From Chrysomallon squamiferum (taxonomy: Eukaryota > Animalia > Mollusca): DNA of 64,000 nt. Position 1 is the first letter of the stretch; each line of letters opens with the position of its first letter. The DNA is taken from contig CM022673.1 in the NCBI GenBank assembly GCA_012295275.1, positions 3,224,001-3,288,000 of the forward strand, written 5' to 3'. The notes under the pieces were generated by a model, which made no database searches, had not been told where the DNA came from, and was given only the letters and a program-made list of their open reading frames with translations. Below, in pieces: positions 576-28,221 of the stretch. Both the position numbers and the translations under genes were made by a program.

Positions 576-1823
576 ACAAAAAAAAACTGACAAAAAAAAA
601 CTGACAACATGAGCTGCATACAAACTTATGTACACACTGAACAATATTAATGTGATGAAATGTACATAAAGATTATAGGAATAGACAATGCTGGAAAATA
701 ATAAAAAAAACAAAAACAAAACAACATCCATGACATTAACATTTCATGGGCAGATGGCCATAATTATTTATAATATTAACATTTACCTAAACTATACAAA
801 AGCAAGTTGGATTTTAAAAAAATCAAAATAAATTACTGAGTAAATTCTAAGGATTTATTAGTTTTGTGTGATATTTTCATGTGCCGAAGTTGTAGTGCTG
901 AATGTAATACTTTTAGTAAATCTGAAACACAATGGGAAGGACGAGAAACAGATTTGTCCTAATTCAAGAATGATATCACCAAAATAAAATAAAAATTCTT
1001 CTTTATATTAAGTATAGTTTCAGCATATTGCTCAAGCTTTATTTATAACATCTCCCAGCACATTAATAATATGGACACTTATGAGTGAAAAATATTTGCA
1101 AAACTATTAAGTTGAAAAGTCTTTATTTTAATTTTATTCCCCGTTTATTAATATTTATACCAGCCATTTTATTAGAAATACATATCAGTCACTTACAAAT
1201 TACAAAATATTCCATCATATATTAATTATCACTCGCATAAACAGCAACAAGAAATTCAGTGGATGTTATGTATGATAATCATCAAACCAATTAATTCTTC
1301 TTTTTGTTTTAAAACTTACAACATAAAATAAAATTTAGATAAACAAGTAATGAAATGAGTGAAGTTTTTAACTGAAAGAAACACTAATGAAATGTTTTTG
1401 TTAGGAGATGAATGAATGATTATTTATGATAAAATAACTTGTTGCAATATTTGTTTGTAAGCAATGATACCTTAAGCCTCACTCTCAATCTGACGAACTT
1501 GCTATTTTACAAAATTTAAAGGCGCCATCATGAAGTAATTCAAGTAAATTCGTCTTCAACTGTCATTTGTAAGCTTATAGATGACGATCACATATATATA
1601 TATATACTTCATATTATTTTACACTGTCTTTTTTCTGTTTTAATCACAACAGAAACCTAATTGTGTGGTAATAACTAAATTTAGCAAAGAATAACTAAGA
1701 TGATAACCTGAACAAAAATACCTAGCAGCACTGTTGGCACCAAAAAAATATTAATCTTTTTCCAGACACTGAAATTCCTCAACATTTATAACTACACTTA
1801 AATAAAAATGATAAAGAAACATT

Positions 1824-1982
1824 TTACAAGACATAATCCAGTTCATATCGAATATACTGATTTTTAACATCGTTGGAAATACGAGGATATGCTGGAATCA
1901 TGCCGTCCTGTGCACCAATATACACAGTGTTGTATACCTTCCAATAAACATCTCGCACTTTCCGAGCTGGGTGGAACAAACC
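1824..1982 (-). CDS. SF3B1: SF3B1 exon 21 (terminal coding part)
   Basis: ttttcag|GGT; [55 protein letters not shown]. Confidence 0.96.
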
Positions 1983-4027
1983 CTGAAAAAGCAGAATAAT
2001 GAATGTTTACCTGTTAAGTGTATTAGGTACTTCTGCAAAAAAAAAAAAAAAAAAAAAAAAATCCACGACCATTCCAAATGTATGAAACAAAGCCCGTTAC
2101 TTTGTACACTGAAAATGAGAAGCATATGAATAAACAATTAATAGGTGAAAAGTAAGATTTAAAAAAAGAAACAAAAGTAGAAAACATATTTTCTATTGGC
2201 ATACTAAAAATTACAATAACTCATGGAAACTGCTTGATACAGACAATATAACATAATACTGACACACCCTCCCAAAATAAAAGGAAGGAACTGTACGTAA
2301 AATATTTTAAAAACAAAAATAAAAACAGTCGACAGAACACCAATTACCTGCAGTGTGTACTGTAAGATCTTTGATGGACCAATAGCCACTCTGAGACCTT
2401 CAATGGCACCCATGAAAGCTTGCACAACATGAGGTGATGACTCGAAGATGTTAGGCCAAACGTAATTGAGGAGGTGAGTTAAAGCATCTTCACAACCAAA
2501 ACCATACACACCAAGAGCCATATGCTGAATAGCAGCCATTGATGTCTGTCTGTGCACCAGATCTCTGAAGTAATAGAGTACACTTAGTATGAAGCTAAGA
2601 GAATATTATCAAAATATTAAGATCAATCGTGATGGAATGATTAGCTTAAAAATATTGCTTTATAATTAGCTATTTCATATGAATGGTTCTTAGAAACATG
2701 AAATAAATATGCAGAATGAAACATGAGAGCTCAGATAAAAGGTAAATCCAATTTAGAAAGCCAACACAAAAAAATAAAAAAATAAAAAAAATAAACCATC
2801 AAGAGATTATTTAAACCAATAATTTTTTTAATATCAAGTAACTACCAAAAACTTACCTATCCATAAGGGCATCTTCAAACAGAGGTGAAACAGCATAGAT
2901 ATAATCTTTTCCCATCTCACCAATGTACTCAAACATGAAGGAGAGAGATTTGAGCACACCATTCTGTACGTTGAGTTCTGGAACCCTGTATTCGTTCATC
3001 AGAGCAGGCAGTACAGTGAATGGTGAACACGTCTCGGCTACAATAGCAATGGCCACAGTTGTACAAACACGGTTCTGTCGTTCCTGAACTTTCAAGTTAT
3101 TTAACAGAGTGGCCAGAACATCGTGTGGGCTGAAAAACAGAACAGATAAAATGTATTTATATACTGTACAAGTAAATAGAGTATAATAATAGTTTTGATA
3201 ATTGTTATTAATTATTTCAGATAATAATGACAATAATGAGTAGATTATAAATCATAATGGACACTCATGTAATAAAATTAAAAGACGAGTGTATAAATAA
3301 AATTTTAATTACTTAAATCATGTCTAATACATAAATAATAACAAACCTGAAATACAGATGCAATTTTAATAGTTCTCATTATTAATCTGAACATTCATTC
3401 TCATTATGAACCATAAATAATAAAATACAAAAAACCCTCAAAACACCACTTTAATTCTCCCATTATCTTTAAAATGCAGAAGAACAATAATAACATTAAT
3501 AAAAATAGTTATACTCTATGTATTAACAAAGTTTGTATTTCTTTTACCCAATGGCTTTAGCAATGTAACCAAATGTGTTAACAGTTGCTCTCCTGATGGC
3601 TTTTTTGTGTGCTTTGAGAAGTTCCAGAAGTTCAAAACAGATTCTCATCCACTCTCGGGCAGACACAAACTCAGCGCCTCGGTCAGCAATTCGACCAACC
3701 AAGTCAATACAGTTTTCTTGTACCTTCTCATGTCTGAAACATAAGCAGATAAATTTATTTAAAACATTGGTCAGAACAAAATGAATAGAAAATTACAAAC
3801 TCTAATTATTAAGTCATGGTAATAACAATGAAAATTCAAAGATTATTATTTACAGATTTTGTGGCATGTTTTTTTCCCCACCCACAGTAATGCTAACAAT
3901 TTAAAAATAAACTATGAAGAGGACATTAAATTCAGTCCTTTAAGTTTGATCTTCAGTCAATATTGTCAGGTAATAATTAAAAACCAAGGTTTAAAAGCTT
4001 TCAAATTATCTCTAAAACTGTACTGAC

Positions 4028-4075
<48 letters not shown>

Positions 4076-7000
4076 AGCCAAAAAAAAAGCAACAATATTA
4101 TAAAAAAAATAATAATAATCTTTATACGTAGTTTTAAACCTAAAGCAGATTTTACAATAAGATACCATAATAACTGAAAAATAAGACATCAGCTGTTACT
4201 TTTTAATGAGCACATAATAAATAAATAAAACATTCATTCTGGAAACCAGTGTTCTATTATACTGGTCATTAAAATTCTGTATTATTAAAGGACACAAATT
4301 CTTCAGCACCAACCTGTTTTTCAAGATGGGTGTCAACCGTGGCAGCAGATCTTTGATGGGTGGTGTCATCTTTGTCATACCAATGACATTTACAATGCCT
4401 TTCAGAGCACCAAGTATTGAACCAAGTACCTCTGGGTATTCCTCTCCTAGGTACTCATACAAGACCACACCCAAGTGACCCATCAATTTTTCCTGTAGGA
4501 ATGATAGAATATAATACTATTAAAAATCAAGAATTAAACACATAACCTTTAGCCATCACAACAATCAATGTATCATCTGGATATATGGACAAAGGTGGGG
4601 TGGAAAAAAAGAAGAAAAAAAAGGAAACATTCCCATTCAGAAAACCAAAAATTTAACAAAACTGAAAGTAAGGGGATTTAGATTTTTTTTTTTTTTTTCG
4701 ACTTCCCATAACAACAACAATGACAGGCTGCAAAATATAATCTTCAGAATAAAGAGACTTTTGAAAAATGTTCTCACCTCTTGGCATGTTTTCATTACAA
4801 TAGCAATTCTTGAAATGAGGTCAGCAGCTTGTTGTCTGACCTTGGCTGACTTGTTGTTCAGTCGCCACAGAATTGTACCACAGATCTGAGGCAGATATGG
4901 CTTTACCCGTTTTCCCAGTGCATTGATAACTGTTCCAAAACCATTCAGCATCACTACATCCTGTAAAAACACAAAGATTAATGTGTTTTTTTTTCTTTAA
5001 ATAAACACAAACAATTACAAAATGTATCAATACAGCTGATAAAAAATGCAGTAAGACAACACATCAGAATCACTGCTGAATTTTTCTTAATATATCTGAA
5101 ATAAAAACTATTTCAAGAGCTGGTGTCTAAATCAGAGATCAAAATAAATAAAATTTAAATTTAAATTTAATTACTTCCTACATCAGTAAAAAAAAAAAAA
5201 AAAGAAGTAAAAACAGAAAAGCAAAAACCAATTTTAAATATTTCACATTGCAATTGTCAGAACACAATGTAAAATGAAAAAACTGAATTAAAGACTAGTT
5301 ATTTCCTACCTCAGTAGTCTGTTCCTGGAAGGCGTACAGGATGCCATCAATAAGCTGTTCCTCCAGACGGGAGTCAATATCTGCAGCCCCGAGGTTGGCT
5401 ATGATCTTCTCTATTGTCTCCATCACCATCTTACGATACTGTTCTGCTTCATCCTTCAGGTCATCAACCACTCGGCCGACAATCTCAGCTGCCCCGACTT
5501 TGTTAGCTATTTCAACTGTTGTGTCAACAAGCTGGTAATAAAATTTAGAAAATTTAAATACAGAAAATACTGGCATTTGTATGTCGGGAATTTAATACGA
5601 ATGAAGTGAAATGAAATTCTGGCTAAACTGTAAACATGCTACAGATTGCAAAAATCAGGTTTAAATTTTAAAATAGATAGTACTGCAATTTGAGAAAATT
5701 AAATATATCCAGAATAGTTTTAAAAAATTCTAAGTGTTTACCTGTCGGTAATTTCTACGATCCAGAGCCATTCTTTGGTTCCAGAAATGTTTGAAAAATG
5801 CTGGCAAGATTTCATCTTTGATATACTGTGGTTCGACACCATCTGTAGCACAGCACTGCTTCACCACCTACAACAACAGCATTCTCTATAGTTTATGCAT
5901 TATGCATGTAACTAACAATATCTTTGTTACACATGTCTCGTTAATAATAATTTTAAAAATAAACAATTTTAGTTACATCAGACCTCTGCAAACACAACGA
6001 ATGCAATGTGAAGAAATGCAACAAACACTTTTGAAAATTAGCTTCAGGAAAATCAAACTAAATATCAAAAGTATCACTGAAACCTCAGTCACAGGAATGT
6101 CTAAACTTTGATAAAATAATTTAACATTAAATTTCGCCTGCCTCAGAGGTAGTGACGAAATGAGTTGTACATCAAAGTATTTCAGTCAGGTAAAATGCTT
6201 ACATCACTGGCAGCAGAAAAACACAGAAATTTAATATAATTGTTATTTCTAATTTATGTCTACCCAAAAAGTCCATTACTTAAAACAAACCTGTCAGGAA
6301 AACTGTAAAGTGATTTTTGATACATACTGTTTACATAAAAATTTTGAAGCAGTCTGACAGAAAGTTAATTTTACTGTTATGTTGTTTTAAGGAAGTCACC
6401 CACCTTTAAAACAATCTTCTTCATTTCTTCATCAGGAGACTGAAACTCACGGATGAGGATCAACATCACTTCCCTGGTGTAGTAATTAGCATACTCAGCA
6501 TCCATCAAAGGAATCAAATAACCAATAGCTTTCAAGAAAGCTGCCAAACCCTGTCAATTAAAAAACATTAAATATTTTATACTTGTATTATTTAGAATTT
6601 TTTTTAAATTATCCATTCCATCTTTTGAAATAAATATATACATGTCTTTGGTATAAGATACTAACCATACAACTTTATGAAAAAAATTTTTTTTTTTGTC
6701 TTCAAAGAAATCAACTGCATAAATTTAGTTCACAATCTTTTTGTAATATACGTATCAATACACACACACATATATGTACCTTGTTCTAAGTGATGGAAGA
6801 TGATTACTTCTCTTATAGTCAAATATATGCATTATGAATAATGATCCAGTAATGTATTTTATTTCTGATTAAAGATGCCTACCTTGCCTCTGTGCTGTCT
6901 GATACCCTTCCACAGTGGTTTCAGCACACTGTCAAATGACTCAATGCCGTATGGAGTAGCTGCTTCAGCTAAAGCAGCCAGAGCCAGGGCAGTAATAGTT

Positions 7001-10000
7001 CTAACTTTCTGCTGTTCATCAACCAGTCCTATTTAAAACAAAACAAAAATTCTACAGTTTAAAACAAAATAGAATATAGTCAAAATGGATGTTGTAATTT
7101 TTCAAGCATTCAGTAGTATCTTAATTTTTAACATTTGAAGTACACAGAAACAAAATGCTGCATATACATAATGGAAAGTTTCATTTGTATCAGCCTCTGT
7201 GTGGACTTGTATTAATTTTTCTTTTTAAGCTATTTAATTTGCACTTAATTTGAATTTTTCTTTCCCTTTTGTATTTATTACACCAAATATTTAAGTGAGA
7301 GAAAAATGGGAACCAAAAATAATTCCTATTTAAATACCGGAACAGCAATGGATAATGAAAATAAAAATGTATTTATTATTAAATATAAATAAATATCTAA
7401 CTGAAAAAATATGCCTCTATCTAATTCTGATCAAGAATATAAATGACAAACAGTAAAAAATATCAATATCTTTGGAAACTTAGAAATTATTTTTAAAAAA
7501 TCATTACAAACCATGTTCAATAATCTCCACCAAACTCTTCAAGTGAGGCAAAATGGCACAGCCCATTAGGATGGCAATCTGCTGCACAATCTTGATTCCT
7601 GTGTGCCTAGCCTGCCACGACTTTTTGCTCTTGCACACAGCTTTCAAGAAGGGAAGGAGTGACGGTATACCCAGGGCTGAAGCAACCACAGCAAAAGCAC
7701 GAGCTGTCGTGTTACGGACGTACTCATCCATGTTGTCAATGTCTGGCCTCATTGTGGAGATCATAGTGGCAAGACCTGCAGCCTGAACAACAAAAATTAC
7801 AATGACAATAACAATACCAATAGTGGTAACAGAAGTAATAATATTAATAATTGTAACCATAATAATAATGATAATAAGAAGAATATCAATAACAGTAATA
7901 ATTATTGTAATATTAATTGCAAAAATTATAAGAATTAAAAAAAGAGAATGTATTCAATTTTTTACTCAGTGTGTAATTTCAAACTGAAATGTTAAAACAT
8001 TAACACTTATTCAAATTTGAAAACTTAGAAAAGTAACAGTCAGAAAACCTTTGGCATGAAACTGTAAAATCAGTACCATACTAATTTACTCTAAAACATT
8101 CAGAAATAAAATATTCAACATCTGTTATTTGGCACCAGGCAATATTGTCAAAATATACTAAAAAAAAAGGAAAACATCATTTGTTTGAATAATCATAAAA
8201 AATTGTTACCTTTGCCAAATTTGAGATGATTTCTCGACCTTCAACTCGAGCATAGTAATCTTCATCAATCAACAGAGGTTCAATGACAACCAGTATCTTG
8301 TGTACGTAGGGTCGCACCAAGTCATCGAGCTTGTACAGAATTCTGTCAATGACCTTGACCAACAGATGCCTCTCCTGGTCTTCGAGAGTTGGTGACATCA
8401 GCAAAGGTAGAATCTGATTGAAGAGTGGACCAGCACCAAATTCTCGGGCTTTGTCAGTGATTTGTCGAAGAGCAGCCTACAAAACAAAAAAGATTTATAA
8501 AAAAAAAAATAAAAAAATGTTTGTGGTGAAAATGAAATCCTGTTTACCTTCCACTCTTTAACAAAGTTAATGGCATGCTACTGCAGGCGTATCAATGGTT
8601 CATACAAAACATCATTATCAGTGAACAATTCTGATACAAAATCTTTTTTTTTTTTTTTTTTTATCTCTACACAGTCTTCAACAATCATATAACTTCAAAA
8701 TTAATTAAAAGAAAATTATACCAAATTCTGCAAAGCAAGACACTGTTACAGTGTGATAAATTTGAATTTTTTTTTAAATTCTCACAGTTTTTAGAGGAAT
8801 TTTTTAAAATAAATTTATACTGATTTATAACAAGATGTAAAACAGGTTGTCACCTTTCTCATTGGAGGTGTTCCATTCTTGATTTTCAGCAGAAGCTTCA
8901 TGATCTTTCTTTCTTTCTGTTCTTCTGGGGTCAAACTTTCTTCATCTACATCCACCTAAAAAAGAATAAAATGGCCCGACACTAATAATGTATATCTCAG
9001 TATCAGTATAAAATATTCTATAGATAATAAATTTATTTGAAATTAAATATCTTTACTTTTAAAGTATAAAATAATATCAAACAATCCACAAAAATATTTA
9101 TTTATTTTGTTTTCTTTTAATAAAATTCTCATAAAACAATGAATTAAACAAATATATAAAAAATAAAAAAATAAAAATTACCAGAAGTTTATCAAAGTAT
9201 TGCATGTCATCCGGTTTCATCATGGGCAAATTTCCTTTCGGCTGCATGTCAACAATTTCTGTTTTTCTGTCTGGGGTCTGCATGCGGAATCCAGCTGGAG
9301 TCCCTGCCATGGGTGTGGGTGTTGCAATAAGCTTCCGAGCTGGAGTCCTGATAGGAACATAGCCTGCAGGTGGTTGCAAAACCTGAAGAAAAGAATAATA
9401 TGAAAGTATAACATATCTGCAAATACACAACGATAGTTTCAGCTAAACAATTTTTTTTTTTTTTCTAAATTCCCTTGGTAAACTGATACTGGTTTTAAAC
9501 AGATTTGTTCTACAGTGGTGCATATTATGAAATTTTAAAGCAAAAAAAATTAATCAGTCTTTACTAATAGATGCAAGGCTTGTAAAATTTGCTTTCTCTA
9601 TTGATAATAACATGAAAAAAAAAATATGAAAAAGTCATGCAATTGTGATCCAAAACACTTTTAAAAATAATCACCCAGCAACAGTTGACTGGAAATTTAA
9701 TTATATATCCTTTAATTAATTTTTACAAAAATGAATTATCTACCTTGTAGCCAGGTGGAAACATGCTGTCAAGTTCATCGTCACTCATTGGTCTGTTTCT
9801 TTCATCAATTTCTCTCTGCCAGGTGTAAGCCTGCAGCTGCTCAGGGGTCATGGACATCAGATGACCTGGAGTGGGGGTTGCCATATTCATAGCTTTGACT
9901 CCTGTTGGAGTTGTCCCACTAGGAGTGAAGCCGCCAGGGGTAAATCCGCCTGGAGTTAATCCACCTGGTGTCATCTGGCTAGGAGTGTGACCTCCTGGGG

Positions 10001-13000
10001 TATGTCCACCTGGGGTCAAACTAGGAGTTGCCCCTCCAGGGGTCATAGAAGGTGTCATTGCACTAGGAGTGGCTGCACCAGGAGTTTCATCCCATCGAGA
10101 TCTCCTTTTGCTGGCTGTTGGGGTTGGAGTGCTTTCTATCAAGTCACCCCCTCGATCAGTTCTTGGCGTCTCAGCCCAACCACTGCCATGTCCAGGTGTA
10201 CCATGACCTGGAGTAGCATGGCCTGGTGTTTCTGATAATACAAATAAATAAATAAATAAATAAATAAAAAATTACAGTAAACCCAAACAGGATGATATTA
10301 TTCTGTAAAATGCAGTAATATAAATTTATATATTTTCCTTTAACAGGGAAAAAAAAAAAAAAAAAAAAAAAAAAATAATGAAATGCTTTACTTATCAAAG
10401 AACTAGTTTTTAAATTAGTTATATTATCCATGGTCAGTATGAAAGAAAAGTATTAGAAATCACTGTTAATCACACCTCTTTCAGTCCTAGGTGTTTCATC
10501 CCATCTGTTTCTCCTAGCACTAGGAGTGGGCTGATGGCCAGGAGTACCGTCACTGCGAACTGGTGTAGCCATTCCAGGAGTTGCATGACCTGGAGTTGTG
10601 TCCCACTGTCTAGTGCTGCCACCAGGTGTAGCTCCAGGTGTCTGTTCTCCCTTGGATCGACCTGGGGTCTCATCCCATCTGCTGTTGGACGGTGTGCCTC
10701 CTGCTTCTGCTGCATCCCAGGAAGATGATTTCTTCTTGGCAGGGACGTCTTCCTGCTTGCTCATGTCCCATCTCTTCCGTTTTCTTTCTGGCATTTTCTG
10801 ATTAGCATCTCCACTGGCACCGTTCACAGCTCGAAGGTCTCCTGACTTGGCCTTCTCTGACATCTGCTTACGAAGTCCAGCCTAATAAAAATAATAGAAG
10901 AAATTTTTTTTTATTACAAGATGAAAGAAATGAAAAAAATTCGACTAAAGTGTTCAAGAAACAAAATAACAGTAAACCTACAAAACAAATAGATCTCTAT
11001 TACAGTTTACATGTAATGGTGTCAAAAAAAATATTTCATGCTTGTTTTCTAAAGTATTTTATTGAAGTATCATCTTTGTACATTACAATGTTTTATTTCA
11101 AGCTATTTCGTCAGCACCATAGTACACATACAGAAATATAGAACTATTTACAGTATAATCATTTCACTGCAACACCTTTCTTAGTGTTTTTTTCATAATG
11201 ATTTTTAACCAACATACCTGCTCCTTCCCCAGCTGCAACTCCGTCATAACATCTGCATAGGTTCTGGCATTCAACTTGGCATCAGGAGTTTTGCCACCTT
11301 CAAAAGAAAGAAGAAATAGTCACGACAAAATGTCGTGACATTTAAAAAACTTGAGTATGTTGAATAAATTTCTTTATTCTTTACTTGCATATCAGATATG
11401 CACCATCATTTATCCCCAAAAGAAATACATGCATTCTCATTCTTATAAAAGTACTCCTACATTAATATAAATTAATTATAAAACAGTAAACTTAAAGCTT
11501 GGTCTGTAGAAGCTGAGATATTTTTTCTAATAAGTAAGTTTGATTTTTGGACATTTTTCTTCTCATTTTTAAAAAAAAACAAAAAACACAAATGAATATG
11601 GGGACAATATATTAAATTGCTGCATGCATACAGAAGACAAGATCACAATTTTTATGGTAATGGGCACCACAAGAAAAGTAAATATTACTGTCATCTTCAA
11701 CAAACCTATGCTTTAAGAATTCACAAGTTAAAAAGTAATCAATGCATGTATTTCAATGGGCTTGGACAGAAATCAAACACTTAAATAAAATGAAAAATAA
11801 TTATTTGCTATTTCTGCAACATTTTTGCAATTATTAACAAGTGTCCAAAGTTCTTAGTTCATGAACTTTTAAGTTTTAACTTAGATGTTTTTTTCTTTCC
11901 AATATGCCAGAGTTAACATTCTGTTGTAACTAATATTATCTTAAATATATATCAATAGCTAACTGCTATTAGTTTTTTTTCCCGTTTTCTAGGGTGACAG
12001 TATTTTGTTAATTTATTTAATAATAAAAACAAAATAATAAAATAAATAAAATACATAAAAAAAGAAAAATTAAGTAGATCATAATGATAATTAATTTTTT
12101 TGGGGGGAATTAGAAAAATATAAATAAATAAAAATAAGAATTCAAATTCAACAATTCAAAAACTAACAAACTTTAGACATCTTTGTCATATTGCTCATCT
12201 ATCGAATACAAAAGAGAGAAAAACATTTAAATAAAAAATTCAAGAAATTTAATAATTTTTTATTGAACAATGAATCAAGTGTTGATTTCCATCCAAAATG
12301 GACAGTAAATATGACAAATATAAATTTGTTCATACACAAATTACGTACGTGCCAGGTCTTCAGGCCCCTCTCTCCAGACATCACTCTGCATAATAAGACA
12401 TCGCTAATCCTAAAATTAGTCTCAAATTAGTGCAGTTCGCCCACACATTTATATCATTCACGTTCACAACAGTTAAATTAAAACAACTAAATTCCTGTTC
12501 TACTGTACTCATTTCTTTACCACCAGATCTTGTTAACTATTGGGGACATTATTGAAACATGAAAAATAAATAACAAAAATAATGATACTAATAATCTTGC
12601 AGTAATATTGAAAAGATCAATGAGCCTAACCGAATCTTAGATGATAACAGCTAATATTAAACAGAACATTTTTTTGTGGAAAGATAAAATTATTTTATTA
12701 TTAGGATACTGATAAAATTATTTAAGGAACAAAAGGAAGTCAGCATTTTAGAAAACAACTTCAGAAAACAAAAGGAAAATAAGTATATCTTTAAAAATAT
12801 TTTTTATGAAATCAGTCATTATTTTTTCTAAAGCTCGTTTTCTTATAGTGCAAAGAATACAACCTTATTAAAGTACAGATAAAACTGTTTTATGGATTTT
12901 GTTTTAAATTTTTAATTCAGATTATAATTTAAGGTCTTGAAAAATTGCATGTTCCCGATCAAATTGTACTTTCACTGACTGTAAAACAATTCAACAGCTT

Positions 13001-16000
13001 TTTATTTTTAATGAATACAGTCAAATCGTTGTTTTTTTATTAAAACGTTTAACGTGAAATATTGTTTTAAATGATTTATTTACAACAGACTGGAAATCGG
13101 AAACACACTAACTTTCACAGGCCTTTTAAACTTAAACATCCATATATTTTTTTTTTTTTAATTACTTCTGGACCTGAAAAGATTCTGAAGTATCCCTAAC
13201 ATTTTAATGTTGCTGTTAAAATGGCTAAGTATTCTTTTAATCTGCTTTTTCTTTTTTAATAAAAAAAATTCTGTAGGATCTATAAATATATATATCCAGA
13301 ATGTTGAAGATGTCATTGAAGTTTGCACCTTGGGTGTTTCAAAAATCAACCTTTAATGATACTATGCCATTAAAGTTGTCTCCTGAGTCCATTCTGCTCA
13401 ACGTATGGATGCTAGAAAGGAAAGACAGGTCTATTAGTAGTGTTCTTCACTTTTGGTTCGCTTTTCACAGACTTTATTATGTGTGAAAATATGCTTGTTT
13501 CATGAATGTCAATGACCATTTTACTAATTAAACAGCCTGTGCCTTATGTTGTTAAAAACTAACAAAACAAACAAACAAAAACATGTTGGATGTTACTCTG
13601 GTTAACAACAGGACTTGTATCTGAACTGGTGAATTATGGAGTTCATCTGTGACAGTTTCTAGGAAAAAAAAGCTCCCGTCTCTTTTCAAATTTCAGACAA
13701 CAAATATTTACTGTAGTTAAAAAAAAAATCAAGAAATTAGAAAATAAAAAATAGAACTATTCACAAAATGCAGGATACTAATGTAAACCAGACACTGGCA
13801 GTTTAAAAATGTTTCTGTTCTGCTGAATAATTAAAAGATTTAGCAGCAAACATTTTTTTTTTGAAACAAACATATTTTCACTTCTAGTTGTTTTCACTGC
13901 TGTTTTGTTACATTTCAGATCACAGTTTTGACAGTCATAAGCACAAACATTTGTGTACTATTTGCAGTTTGAGTTTCCTACAATCAGGCACAAATGTGAT
14001 GTGGTCGGACAAATGCAGCACATACTCACTCAAATACCTTATAAATTGCAATTTTGCCGCTGGTTTAAATTTTCCTATTCTACAACAACTGATTTTTCTA
14101 ATAAAAATCACATTCTTGTTACTGTTAAAATTAATCTAGTGAGGTTCCCCAGTAATGTTTTTTTTGTTGAAAATATATACTGACATTAAGATATTTAACA
14201 AAAACATAAAAGTAATAACAACAGCATATTGTTTTTGATTTCTGCTCATGTAAATGTTTGTTACTTGTAAAAAAATTAAAACAAAAATTAAGAACAATGG
14301 TTGAATCGTAAAAAAATGTTAAAGGAATCTATCTATCTGGAGCCATTCCCTGCTTCAGTTAAAGTGGAACACAGAAATTTAGACTGCAATCTGATCTGGC
14401 TGCAGAATACAGAGAAAACCAAGTCATCTTATAAAGAAAAAGAAAAAACAAAACAAACAAAATGGTAAACATCACAAAATCTGGGCATCACCACAGTATT
14501 ATTTGAGACTGGCTGGATAGGACAAATTCTTATAATATTTTATTCAATGTCTTAAAAGTATAGCCAGCATAAGGAACATTTAAAATAAAGGAAGACAAGG
14601 CTTTTTATTGTCATTTAAAACAAAAAATGCATACATTGAAGATAATCAGTTCATAGAGAAAAATACTATCAATATTGTAACATGCATAGGTTTTGGCGTA
14701 ATCACTCCATTTATGAAAATGCACAAACATGTAACAATATATATCATACAAAAAAATAAAAATAAAAAAATTAATAAATAAATTAAAAAAAAAAATAAAA
14801 ATACTAACCGTCTGCAAATGGATCATATCGCTCGGGACTGATGATCATGTTACGTCTCCTGGCACGATATTCATCTTCTCTGTCGGAGATCTTTGGAATA
14901 CGATGTTCAGCAAGTGGGTCATAATCCTAACAAAAATAAAAATTCTCTTTATATTTACCAATAATCAAAAGACTACACCAGCATACATATAAAAATATCA
15001 CCTATATATTCAAAGATTATTATTAAAGTTATTTTGTTTGAACATAAACTGGAAAATAAAAGTCTGAAATATTTCCATGAATCATAAATAGTATCATTAT
15101 CATTTCTTTTCAGCAAGTAGAAATATATCAATATTTTTTCATTTTTAAATTTTAAAGAAATTATGTACGAGTGCAAAAAATATTACATAGATGGAGAACA
15201 TAAACTTAATTCCTACAAAAGGATTTACATGCCTATTTTGTTTTTGATGCTTTAATCAAAATTCAGAGATAAGATAACACAAATTATTTCTGGCATTTAA
15301 TTAGCTATATACACATTTGGTGAGACTGCAAAATCTCTGATGTAGAATTAAACTAAATACAAAACAAAGACTTACTTTGTCTGCAGAAGTTTCATGAAGT
15401 AAGTTCAATGGTGCTGTGTATGTTGATCTCTTTGGAAAAGAAGCTGGTACTTCTTCATCTTCCTATATAATAATAATAAAGTATAATATTAAACTGAAAA
15501 AAAACAGTACATTTACATATGAAAGCCGAAAAATAAATAAATAATGAATAAAAAAAGGAAAAACCAAGTATCTTGAAACAAATTTGTGCAAAATAAAAAT
15601 CATGGAGAGAAAAGGTAAAATTTTAATTTCAAAGGTTATTTTAAAAACGTTAACATATTTATCAAATTTATCACTCCTCAGCTTTTCAGAGTACATAGAT
15701 TAAAGAGATAAATAAAAGTCCAAAGTGTAGTTTGATTCAACACTTACATCAATTTCATCTGTTGCTGCAATAGAAGTGACATATCCATCGAAGCGACTGT
15801 CAGATCCACCGTAAATGTCAACATCATAATGTCCCTCGGCTCCCAGTCCTACTCTGTCTGTTTCCGGGTTTTCTTTTGGAGCCTGCTGAAGCTGTGCTTT
15901 TTTAGCCTGAATATTTCGCACTTGCTCCTCAATTTCTAAAATTTTATCACTTATACATCAATTATACATACAATGCATATTAAATGGTAAATAAATGTAT

Positions 16001-24763: not shown

Positions 24764-25971
24764 ATTTATTAAGAAAAGTCTACTCTTGTACCAGTCGACA
24801 AAGAGAACGGAAATAGAAAGAAATTAACAGAAATGTAACAATAAACATCTAATCCACGATAGCACTCTGCCCCACAAATCATCACTTTTATATACATTTC
24901 CAGCCTTTGATAAACAAAACGAAGAAATCTTTGAACGTTAAGGTCATCACATCGCTTTCAGAAGAAAACTATGACCGGTAATGGATATATGAAGTCAACA
25001 CAAATACGCGAGTTAGTTTAATTCTCATTGCTGGTTTATAAACAGGAATATAAAATAAAGAAGTGTTGCATCTATATTCCTGACCCTGACCGTAACCTTG
25101 TTTTTCTATCTACCATGACTTCAGGAATAACCCATATCTGTATTTTACTAATAGTTTTTGACAGAAAGGTTTTTCCAAAGCAGATTAAAATGCAAGCGTT
25201 TACTGTGGTTATTGCAGTGTCTGGAATTTCAGATGAAACACTGGTTTCCATTTATCATGGACATCCATTAGTTTCGCTTGTAGCTAAACAAAATCTATTT
25301 TATTGAAGAAACCGCAGTCAGTTTTCAGTTCACTGGATTTAAACATACATCAAACATCTGATATATTTACAAAGTAAAAGAGGAATACGTCAGTTTTTAG
25401 GGGAAAAAAAGGGGGAAAAAAAGAAAGAAAGAAAGTAGCAAATAATTAAGATCAACAATTGAAAAAGGCCAAAATAACAGAATTCTATATATTACGATCT
25501 TTTGAAACTTTTAAAATAGGATTTGCTACATCTCCATTTATATTAACTAATATATATTCCAGACATATGCCTGTATCTGGTGCACACATGTTACATACAT
25601 TAAATGTGTATTTCTTCTTCTTTTGTTTTACGATGGTTACAGTTACAAGATCTATTGCGAGCATTTTGCGCGCACTCACACACGCACGCAAACAGACACA
25701 CACAAGCACTTTCACTCATTGTGTATTAAAGACCACTTTCTGCTAATCAGTGAGTACCAAAAAGGAAAGTGTCAGCGGGTTTCCTTTCTCTTATCATCAT
25801 TATACAGAAGACTTAACCATTAATATTAAAATGTTTTGAGATGTTAAACCAAAATTCATTCCTTCATTCGGTCATGCTTTCATTCGTTCGTGCGTAAGTT
25901 TAATCGCTCATTCTTCCTAATGTGTATGCTTAATTCGTTACATAAAAACACAAAGAGAATCATTAATTGTT

Positions 25972-25988
25972 TTTATTCGTGGTTTATT
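25972..25988 (-). terminator. Tandem polyadenylation signals of the prohormone gene
   Basis: Two AATAAA on the minus strand (25983-25988, 25972-25977) about 300 nt after the stop, followed by a T/GT-rich tract (ctctttgtgtttttatgt). Confidence 0.6.
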
Positions 25989-26283
25989 GCCAAATTATAA
26001 AGACAAACATAATTATGTCTATCAGCTTAGATTAAAAAAATTAACAGTTTTTCTGTAACTTAGCAATTTGTTTGGTATTTAACATTTATGGAGCGTCTTT
26101 AGAACTTGATTAAGACTGCTATGTTCTCGTTAATATTTCGCAAACTGTCAACATAAATCCATTGGCTAATTGAAAATATTGTCCTGTATTGTTAGTAGAC
26201 ATTCTGTTTCTTTGTTAGGTAATATTCATGTTCTGTAGCTGCTGGTAAAGACATAACAGTTAGCTGTTTGGTTGGTCGTAGTT

Positions 26284-27177
26284 TCAGTGTTTAGATGGCT
26301 GCCGCTTTGTGCCACTGAATGTAGTGCTCCAATCCTGAAGACCGTCAGTAAAATATTTTCTGTAGCTGCCGAAGTTAGGAGAGAAGCTTCGCAGTTGTCG
26401 TTTAGAAATGCCGTTAGCTAAGTTGTCCCATTTCATATATCTGGCGTAGTCGTCGAGGTAGCTACCAAGGTCGTAATTGGACTCTCCGAATCCGCGTTTC
26501 GTCAGCCAGTCACGCCAGGACTGTAATTTTGGTGCCTCAGGAACGCCAAAACCTTGACTGGAGCCGAAATCTCTTTTCACGAGCCATTCCTGCCATTTCT
26601 GTAGATTTGGATTTTTTCCTTGGCCGAAACCCAGCTGTGCTGAACTGAAAGAGCGCTTGCTTCTCTTCAAGGGAGACTCTTGGTTGTATTCGAAGTTTCG
26701 TTTACTCCACCAATCATTCCATTTCTGGAGGGTTTCTGGATCAGTTTTGCCGAAAGCTTGGCTGCCAAAAGCAGTTCCACGTTTCAGCAGCCATTTCTGA
26801 TAATGATCAGAGATGCCTTTTCCGAAACCATTGGTACTGTCCGGGCCAAATCCTCTCTTTGACATCCAAGCGTTCCAGCTTTGAAGATCATCTGGACTTT
26901 GTTCTCCGAAAGATTTTCCGTTGGAGTCGAAGCTTCCTCGCTTGGCCAAAAACTCGTGCCATTTTTGAAGAGTTTCCGGATCGTCTTTGCCAAATGATTT
27001 GTTATGTCCGAATGAACGCTTGCTGTACCAGTCGTACCATTTCTGAAAGGAATCGTGTCCCCCGTCGTGTCCGAAAGATTTATCAGAATGTGAAGATTTC
27101 AGGGAGTCGGCGTACGCTGCCGTCACAGCCACTGCCACTATGAGGCTGACGGAAATTATTTCGTGAAGTTTGTCCAT
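26284..27177 (-). CDS. Uncharacterised multi-copy neuropeptide/peptide-hormone precursor (297 aa), single coding exon
   Basis: Acceptor tgttttccag at 27192/27191, ATG at 27177. Hydrophobic signal peptide (IISVSLIVAVAVTAAYA|D), 11 KR dibasic sites, repeated FG...LQxWxxW peptides, TGA at 26284-26286. The first 17 aa of the 314-aa ORF-track protein are intron or UTR. Confidence 0.9.
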   Translation of the reverse strand: MDKLHEIISVSLIVAVAVTAAYADSLKSSHSDKSFGHDGGHDSFQKWYDWYSKRSFGHNKSFGKDDPETLQKWHEFLAKRGSFDSNGKSFGEQSPDDLQSWNAWMSKRGFGPDSTNGFGKGISDHYQKWLLKRGTAFGSQAFGKTDPETLQKWNDWWSKRNFEYNQESPLKRSKRSFSSAQLGFGQGKNPNLQKWQEWLVKRDFGSSQGFGVPEAPKLQSWRDWLTKRGFGESNYDLGSYLDDYARYMKWDNLANGISKRQLRSFSPNFGSYRKYFTDGLQDWSTTFSGTKRQPSKH

Positions 27178-28221
27178 TGCTAGTAGCGTTCCTGGAAAAC
27201 ACAAAATACAAAATAAATAAATAAACAAATAAAAATAAATAAAAGTTTAATAGCAGTAGTAGTAACCGTGTGTAGATGTACTAGTATTAGTATTAGTAGT
27301 AGCAGTAGTAGCAATAATAATAAAACATATAATGAAGACAATTATGATAATAATAATAATGATGATGTTGATTATAACGATAATATTTGCAAATACAACA
27401 ATAGCATCATTTAAATAAAAATATTCATATAATCAATAACAAAAAGTTATTTACTTCAATTTGGATTAATTTGTTGCAGCTCTGACATATTAAAATAACA
27501 TAAACCGCAGAGGCAGGACTAAAACCTCATTTTTCAGAAAACAAAGAGGATTTATTTTTCGTCATGCTGACTTTTTATACATCATGGCGAAAAGTCATAT
27601 AATATCAAAGCATTAGTATGTAAATATTGTTGACAGATACAATGCTTAGAAACATATTCAGTATCTGCCAGTCATAAAAAAGGGTGACACAAACACAATT
27701 ATAATTAAGAAAATGTTTTTCATCTAAATCCTTCTATGCTGTGAAATGACTAGCTGGAAATCTTCACCTACAAATAGTTATGGCGTTCAACGTCATAACG
27801 TCTGACCGAAATGAAACAACCACCTGCTTTTAACTGAAGCAACCATCTACTTTCAAGATGGACAGCAAACACATTACAGGTGTTGTTAACAAAATTCTGT
27901 GTTATTATTAGCATGTTTTAAGTCCTTGTAAGATTAAATCTTTGAAGAGTCAGGAACTTAGGTGATTAAATATTTATGAAGCAGAGGTAAAATGACTCAT
28001 TGGAATAAACGTCCGACATAAATTGCTATCGACACAATTCGAATCAGGCTGGATAAAATATTACCAAATGTATGTCGCCGATTCTTAATATTTCGTTAAC
28101 ATTTTTTTTTTTTTTACCTCTTGTCACTGAACAGTCGATCTATTTGCGGTATTTGAAATTCCTTATATTGATCACATATTCCAATTATTATACAGTAATC
28201 TATAATTTACTATTTATGTTA

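Follow-up and report, generated by a model that had tools for sequence, protein, structure and literature searches.

Among the described peptide systems that lie closest to the locus reported here, achatin precursors contain unamidated, KR-bounded tetrapeptides of the form GFxD (GFGD or GFAD), and position 2 of achatin-type peptides is isomerised to D-Phe. Pedal peptide/orcokinin (PP/OK) precursors are multi-copy and yield mostly unamidated peptides with an N-terminal Phe and Gly/Ser-rich middles, which in protostomes have a D-x-[IL] core. Wamide/MIP/allatostatin B (AstB) peptides and the WI peptides of Platynereis, again multi-copy, carry two Trp per peptide, one towards each end, with a W-x6-7-W spacing, and the WI peptides are unamidated. 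Tachykinin precursors have a multi-copy prohormone layout as well and their peptides end in FxGxR-amide. Finally, the ligands of the secretin class (glucagon/PACAP, DH44/ELH and iPTH/QSGamide) are built in two parts, a flexible N-half and an amphipathic C-helix, and DH44/ELH and QSGamide are amidated. The Platynereis achatin precursor described in PMC3890597 consists of GFGD repeats, and PP/OK peptides are defined loosely in PMC5814872, by hydrophobic residues (F/L/M) at one N-terminal position and at two C-terminal ones.

The locus lies in a stretch of 64,000 nucleotides of the Chrysomallon squamiferum genome (contig CM022673.1 of assembly GCA_012295275.1, positions 3,224,001 to 3,288,000), hereafter the window, which is AT-rich with an animal-type intron layout. 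Its features are collected in Table 1. The longest ATG open reading frame of the window encodes the precursor P0001, at the very position where the initial annotation, made from the letters alone, had placed an unassigned prohormone; that annotation omitted the strand, which is minus. When P0001 is split at KR, nine related peptides 23-30 aa long come out, along with a spacer of 10 aa, a KR-S-KR site and a tail of 5 aa; every peptide listed initially was found letter for letter in the translation. We counted 11 KR sites, no Gly before a dibasic site and no Cys, in agreement with the earlier statement that the peptides lack both an amidation signal and cysteine. None of 100,000 residue shuffles reached the counts observed in P0001 for [LFY]Q[KSD]W (8 against a shuffle maximum of 2), KR (11 against 8) or FG (13 against 9). 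The signal peptide proposed for residues 1-23 is backed by a 9-residue Kyte-Doolittle peak of 3.1, by an A-x-A at residues 21-23 and by a helix predicted over residues 2-27 in the AlphaFold model (pLDDT 83-87 over residues 1-20). The description of the repeats had to be relaxed, however. A double FG had been ascribed to each peptide and is present in four of the nine, the other five having one FG; similarly, the L-x2-W-x2-W-L pattern ascribed to each comes down to W-x2-W in five of the nine, while an [LFY]Q-x-W core is found in eight. Two features had gone unmentioned, namely the RSKR site and the conservation of the last peptide, which exceeds that of all the others. A six-frame motif search detected no second copy of the precursor in the window.

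Table 1. Features of the precursor gene, in window coordinates.
Feature	Position	Strand	Basis or remark
Prepropeptide ORF P0001, 297 aa	26284..27177	minus	translation
Predicted signal peptide, aa 1-23	27109..27177	minus	hydropathy, A-x-A, predicted helix
Peptide 1, 29 aa, one FG, FQKW core, W-x2-W	27022..27108	minus	
Peptide 2, 24 aa, two FG, LQKW	26944..27015	minus	
Peptide 3, 26 aa, LQSW, W-x2-W	26860..26937	minus	
Peptide 4, 23 aa, two FG, YQKW, short tail	26785..26853	minus	
Peptide 5, 25 aa, two FG, LQKW, W-x2-W	26704..26778	minus	
10-aa spacer, then KR-S-KR; includes RSKR furin-type site, aa 172-175	26653..26697	minus	
Peptide 6, 25 aa, LQKW, W-x2-W	26578..26652	minus	
Peptide 7, 24 aa, two FG, LQSW, W-x2-W	26500..26571	minus	
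Peptide 8, 30 aa, divergent, tail like that of the Patella relative	26404..26493	minus	1.0 bit against relatives-only profile
Peptide 9, 30 aa, N-terminal Gln, GLQDW core, most conserved	26308..26397	minus	identity to relatives; Biomphalaria counterpart in MS
Last exon, with 15 nt of 5' UTR, the entire coding sequence and the 3' UTR	25967..27192	minus	contigs of runs X7/X8
Polypyrimidine tract and AG splice acceptor	27193..27260	minus	sequence; genome-size runs continue to 27200
Two AATAAA polyadenylation signals	25972..25988	minus	sequence

We compared the peptides of P0001 with each of these systems. Like achatins they are unamidated and KR-bounded, and many units of the family described below begin with G-F-G; unlike achatins they are 23-30 aa long with a Trp-rich C-half that is predicted to be helical, and membership of the achatin family was rejected because the mature peptide is not a GFxD tetrapeptide. 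They share with PP/OK peptides the multi-copy arrangement, the mostly unamidated ends, the N-terminal Phe and the Gly/Ser-rich middles, but they are longer, have a predicted Q-x-W-x2-W helix and have no D-x-[IL] core in their N-halves. They do fit the PP/OK hydrophobic positions loosely, although this criterion is too permissive and their C-terminal positions are mostly Trp. The Wamide/MIP/AstB family was rejected as well: two Trp per peptide and multiple copies are common to both, and the WI peptides are also unamidated, but here the spacing is W-x2-W, the Trp pair does not occupy the two ends and P0001 contains no Gly-dibasic site of the W-G-K-R type. The ESM Atlas neighbours of P0001 were all neuropeptide precursors of no single family, with tachykinin precursors at the top (cosine 0.91). 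This likeness is generic, since P0001 has neither FxGxR-amide nor an amidation Gly and no Pfam hit, and tachykinin was rejected. Length and the two-part build are shared with the secretin-class ligands, and we take the F-x-x-W stretch of the P0001 peptides to resemble the glucagon-family helix; DH44/ELH and QSGamide differ from them in being amidated. By these comparisons P0001 fails as an achatin, a Wamide/MIP or WI, a tachykinin or a glucagon-type precursor, and a PP/OK assignment is unsupported.

The exact P0001 sequence was absent from the protein collection searched. Whole-protein word-index searches with P0001 retained none of 373 candidates at E ≤ 0.01 and none of 17 shorter candidates at E ≤ 10, and a Pfam search at E up to 10 gave no family. 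These blank word-index searches reflect a limit of sensitivity, because a profile of the repeat unit did find the family. This profile, built from nine units (alignment A1) and run against 1.84 billion representatives at E ≤ 0.001, returned 12 matches, 10 of which are precursors or fragments with the same KR-bounded repeat grammar. The initial annotation had suggested a search with an HMM of the repeats, and none of the ten carries a family name. The two others, P0010 (TPR-containing, acidic and Pro/Ala-rich; blastp 27 bits) and P0012 (a low-complexity repeat; blastp 25 bits), were dropped as spurious. Pfam searches on the 12 hits gave unrelated or weak matches only.

The named matches are all gastropod, which by itself makes a gastropod source for the window likely, and all recorded as 'uncharacterized' or 'hypothetical': Aplysia LOC101861311 (XP_012942544.1), Biomphalaria LOC106078654, Candidula CAG5124208.1, Plakobranchus GFO40830.1 and a fragment from Patella, KAK6165895.1. 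They are 28-46% identical to P0001 and, like it, have a signal peptide (except the Patella fragment), KR-bounded unamidated repeats, an F/L-Q-x-W core and a conserved terminal peptide. Unlike P0001, they vary in repeat number and internal sequence and lack the mid-precursor RSKR; the broader R-x-[KR]-R, also absent from the named gastropod relatives, occurs mid-precursor in P0011 and P0017-P0020. In the reverse direction, 51 units taken from nine relatives, with P0001 itself left out, were made into a profile that gave P0001 57.6 bits; the best of 1993 scored shuffles (of 2000) reached 9.9 bits. Four more members, the unnamed ENA proteins P0017-P0020, came from the family profile. The unnamed ENA proteins P0017-P0028, nine of which are near-identical in one cluster, share the core L-[VI]-D-W-S and have, as P0001 does, an RSKR spacer in mid-precursor. 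The 90%-cluster twins P0015 and P0016 were excluded from alignment A2, and the near-twins P0018 and P0020 from the unit counts. Judged by eye, the supplements of PMC6425005 also contain look-alikes: three chiton records, a scaphopod sequence and CapteP199148 of the annelid Capitella. We labelled P0013 as annelid-type because of its close likeness to the C-terminus of CapteP199148. As the annelid-type proteins P0011 and P0013 were matched at E = 1e-5 and 3e-4, values no stronger than those of the two spurious hits, the extension of the family to annelids, suggested by architecture and pairwise scores, is likely rather than firm.

The core of the family, defined over 70 units chosen by a hydrophobic-x-x-W pattern, reads [LF]-Q-[DNS]-W-x-[DSNE]-[WLM]-[FMY]. 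The Gln is present in 46/70 units, a Trp at +3 in 26/70, an upstream F-G or L-G in 50/70 and two FG in 18/70. What defines the family is [FL]-Q-x-W-x-[DE]-aromatic preceded by a single F/L-G, not a strict double FG. Gly makes up 20% of the residues in the N-halves, Ser 12% and Phe 11%. For the C-halves the mean hydrophobic moment at 100 degrees is 0.46, against a shuffle mean of 0.31 (maximum 0.38). The moment peaks between 100 and 120 degrees, and the pattern by which the units were chosen accounts for some of the excess. In the AlphaFold model of P0001 a helix covers most C-halves, at low confidence (mean pLDDT 48). A single Gly-dibasic site was counted among 15 family proteins.

Peptide 9 of P0001 is 67, 50, 60, 70, 60 and 37% identical to its counterparts in P0002, P0003, P0004, P0007, P0006 and P0009 (the Biomphalaria protein), respectively, and the other P0001 peptides reach at most 42% identity to relatives. 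No clear counterpart of peptide 9 was seen in P0005, P0008 or the annelid-type proteins. GLQDW is found in six of the seven distinct gastropod-type terminal peptides. We had considered the last two peptides as degenerate and dispensable, which is wrong for peptide 9, the most conserved of all. The N-terminal Gln of this peptide, a possible pyroglutamate, is common to most gastropod relatives. Phe occupies position 2, the site of the D-Phe in achatin-type peptides, in five of the nine P0001 peptides.

Peptides of the Biomphalaria relative appear in Table S1 of PMC5455113, which reports LC-MS/MS of Biomphalaria CNS peptide extracts; such extracts include sheath and gland tissue too. The table contains the complete KR-flanked terminal 30-mer in two rows, corresponding to two transcript isoforms, with a mass of 3639.7437 against 3639.7436 computed for the unmodified free acid. 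Because the mass equals the unmodified free-acid value, the 30-mer is unamidated and its internal RR is uncut. The match itself is weak (-10lgP 39 and apparently one spectrum, the column meanings being inferred from the layout), and its offset of -24.5 ppm compares with -24.2 ppm for a strong match on the same sheet. The peptide that follows the signal sequence is present on both the uninfected and the infected sheets, with -10lgP of 108 and 200 and values of 8 and 11 in the last column among the rows listed. The motifs of the other Biomphalaria repeats have no match in Table S1, and the motifs and the locus number are absent from the other four text files of PMC5455113, which include the lists of known and novel neuropeptides. 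The peptides of the Biomphalaria relative were detected in that study yet left unnamed in these files, and KR cleavage with a free-acid C-terminus is shown for two of them. Together with the KR-bounded repeats of the 10 relatives and the mRNA-like contigs described below, these CNS peptides support the initial reading of the precursor as a convertase substrate, and P0001 is very likely a processed prohormone.

The AG acceptor and its polypyrimidine tract sit 15 nt upstream of the ATG. Runs X7 and X8, which represent one sample, each gave a single contig without differences from the window (25999-27192 and 25967-27192, respectively). Both stop at the acceptor, at 27192, where genome-size runs align onward to 27200. 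In X8 the first AATAAA is followed by 16 nt before the contig ends, and past the acceptor this contig carries 175 letters without match on the stretch. These two runs hold 45 and 59 million letters, against 400-740 million for the genome-size runs. Because the contigs stop exactly at the acceptor and that of X8 ends near an AATAAA, they look like the product of a spliced, polyadenylated mRNA; this is a strong hint, from one sample, that the whole coding sequence lies in the last exon of such an mRNA. Ten public runs contain the stretch or part of it, none of them recorded as RNA; eight of the 12 listed were compared, and run X10 (one contig, depth 3.5) was left out of the evidence. The non-coding upstream exon implied by the 175 nt of X8 may lie in 27200-64000, and these ~37 kb upstream of the gene contain no ATG open reading frame longer than 130 aa except simple-repeat frames.

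A shorter genomic form of the locus joins ~25751-25756 to 26458, 26489 or 26507 (three breakpoints) and is without 700-755 bp within 25751-26507. It was present in all five genome-size runs compared (three studies) at a depth similar to that of the long form, and the X7 and X8 contigs show the long form only. From codon 240, 230 or 224 onward the coding sequence is missing in this form, which leaves little or nothing of peptide 8 and removes peptide 9 and the stop entirely. A deletion allele that is common, a paralogue or second copy in decay, or fixed heterozygosity may account for it. Coding differences were also observed in X3, X6 and X9, at 26817-26836, 26538, 26581 and 26332; at least six are synonymous and at least three are replacements (T115N, G121S and E214Q), and none of those listed falls in a Q-x-W core. 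Upstream, at 27450-27659, two intronic haplotypes that lie 14 letters and 11 gap positions apart in ~215 bp occur together in X2 and X9, so that the region is either highly heterozygous or present in two copies. About 10 kb downstream of the precursor, on the same minus strand, a multi-exon gene at ~1800-16000 with TPG/RWDETP repeats and HEAT-type exons presumably encodes the splicing factor SF3B1 and offers a synteny marker for finding orthologues.

In all, this analysis identifies a real, conserved family of probable neuropeptide precursors for which no name was found. We hold with good confidence that the locus is a multi-copy peptide precursor gene of an apparently unnamed family, present in gastropods and likely in annelids, and that it encodes nine unamidated peptides that are likely neuronal and likely act through a GPCR. 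The explanation that best survives beside this one keeps the same biology but supposes that the family has already been named in a paper or figure (such as the catalogues of Lottia, Capitella, Deroceras, Sepia, Charonia or Berghia). We regard it as unlikely though worth weighing, as text searches do not reach figures or most subscription catalogues and a species-specific 'FW' precursor is described in Urechis (PMC7737342). Against it, all the named database records of relatives are free of any family name, and literature text searches for LQKW with neuropeptide, and for four of the relatives' accessions or locus identifiers, CapteP199148 and GLQDWR, found no paper. In the portions of the PMC6425005 supplements that were searched, the mollusc look-alikes were found solely in the raw secretome file; in file 3 CapteP199148 stands unlabelled among Gly-rich proteins, adjoining an achatin-labelled entry, and file 4 contains no LQDW, LQNW, FQNW, LQKW or FQKW despite the prevalence of GLQDW in the terminal peptides. 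No family member was found among 10 of the 22 motif occurrences listed from the supplement of PMC8557429, in the Platynereis files of PMC3890597 that were searched, in the supplement of PMC8735849, or in the text and supplement of PMC7737342, where a sequence figure is likely not text. The omission of the Biomphalaria locus from the neuropeptide lists of PMC5455113 points the same way. As far as text and supplement searches reach, the initial description of the system as undescribed or poorly annotated is thus supported, all named relatives being uncharacterized, and the family is probably unnamed in print.

It is doubtful that the peptides represent a divergent, C-terminally extended offshoot of achatin GFxD or PP/OK peptides that shares the receptor of that family. 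G-F-G starts are frequent (22 of 65 units have G at position 1, 21 have F at position 2 and 24 have G at position 3), the Capitella look-alike has an achatin-labelled neighbour, and the PP/OK definition of PMC5814872 is loose enough to admit such peptides. On the other hand, the length and the predicted Trp helix set them apart from GFGD tetrapeptides, Gly-rich non-neuropeptides are reported to have clustered spuriously with achatin in the dataset of PMC8557429, and no achatin- or PP/OK-named protein was among the 12 profile hits. We give equally little credence to an ancient mollusc-and-annelid hormone system in which the two-part peptides would be ligands of secretin-class receptors such as the lophotrochozoan Cluster B GPCRs, the protostome working counterpart of glucagon/PACAP-type ligands. 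Two Cluster B receptors are expressed in the Lymnaea CNS (PMC11551080), but QSGamide is the proposed ligand, and PDB sequences, searched three times at E up to 10, gave 3, 0 and 1 chance-level hits and no glucagon-family chain, so that a glucagon-like origin is without support from PDB sequence searches or Pfam. Least probable of all is a role in defence or as pheromones, with membrane-active peptides secreted from skin, mucus or reproductive glands, which the Trp-rich amphipathic C-halves and the fast divergence of the internal repeats would suit, but antimicrobial peptides are typically cationic whereas the KR-bounded pieces of P0001 have net charges of -3 to +1 and 55/65 family units a charge of zero or below, the peptides of a relative were found in CNS extracts, and the family, which is not species-specific, is conserved in marine, freshwater and land snails. 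Of the neurohormone, pheromone and defence functions offered initially, the CNS extracts, the charge and the conservation favour a neurohormone or neuropeptide over the other two.

For such a neuropeptide precursor, the mRNA would be made in neurons, a site of production that we consider likely, and the predicted signal peptide would take the product into the secretory pathway. By analogy with prohormone biology, a furin-type enzyme would make the first cut at RSKR, followed by PC1/PC2 cleavage at KR and carboxypeptidase trimming. Each peptide is predicted to consist of a flexible N-half rich in Gly, Ser and Phe and a short amphipathic Trp helix. This helix may dock on a receptor or membrane while the F-G half would activate a GPCR; signalling through a GPCR is on balance the better supposition. 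Among the ligands the conserved last peptide would likely be under the strongest constraint; the variable repeats may act more weakly or on a second receptor.

Molluscan neuropeptide catalogues comprise about 65 families (PMC6425005), and several lophotrochozoan GPCRs are still without ligands (PMC8557429). A conserved family that spans limpets, sea hares and pulmonates, likely extends to annelids and is missing from these lists would add a signalling system to the best-studied invertebrate circuits. Mass spectrometry surveys that proceed by library matching are blind to such an unannotated precursor because the libraries are built from known UniProt prohormones (PMC9396074). Should the peptides prove to be Cluster B ligands after all, a hormone system would have been missed by decades of peptide work on Aplysia and snails. 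With the Aplysia and Biomphalaria genes identified the family is directly testable, and the conserved 30-mer is the obvious candidate ligand. As Biomphalaria is a schistosome host, any signalling system newly found in snails is relevant to vector biology as well.
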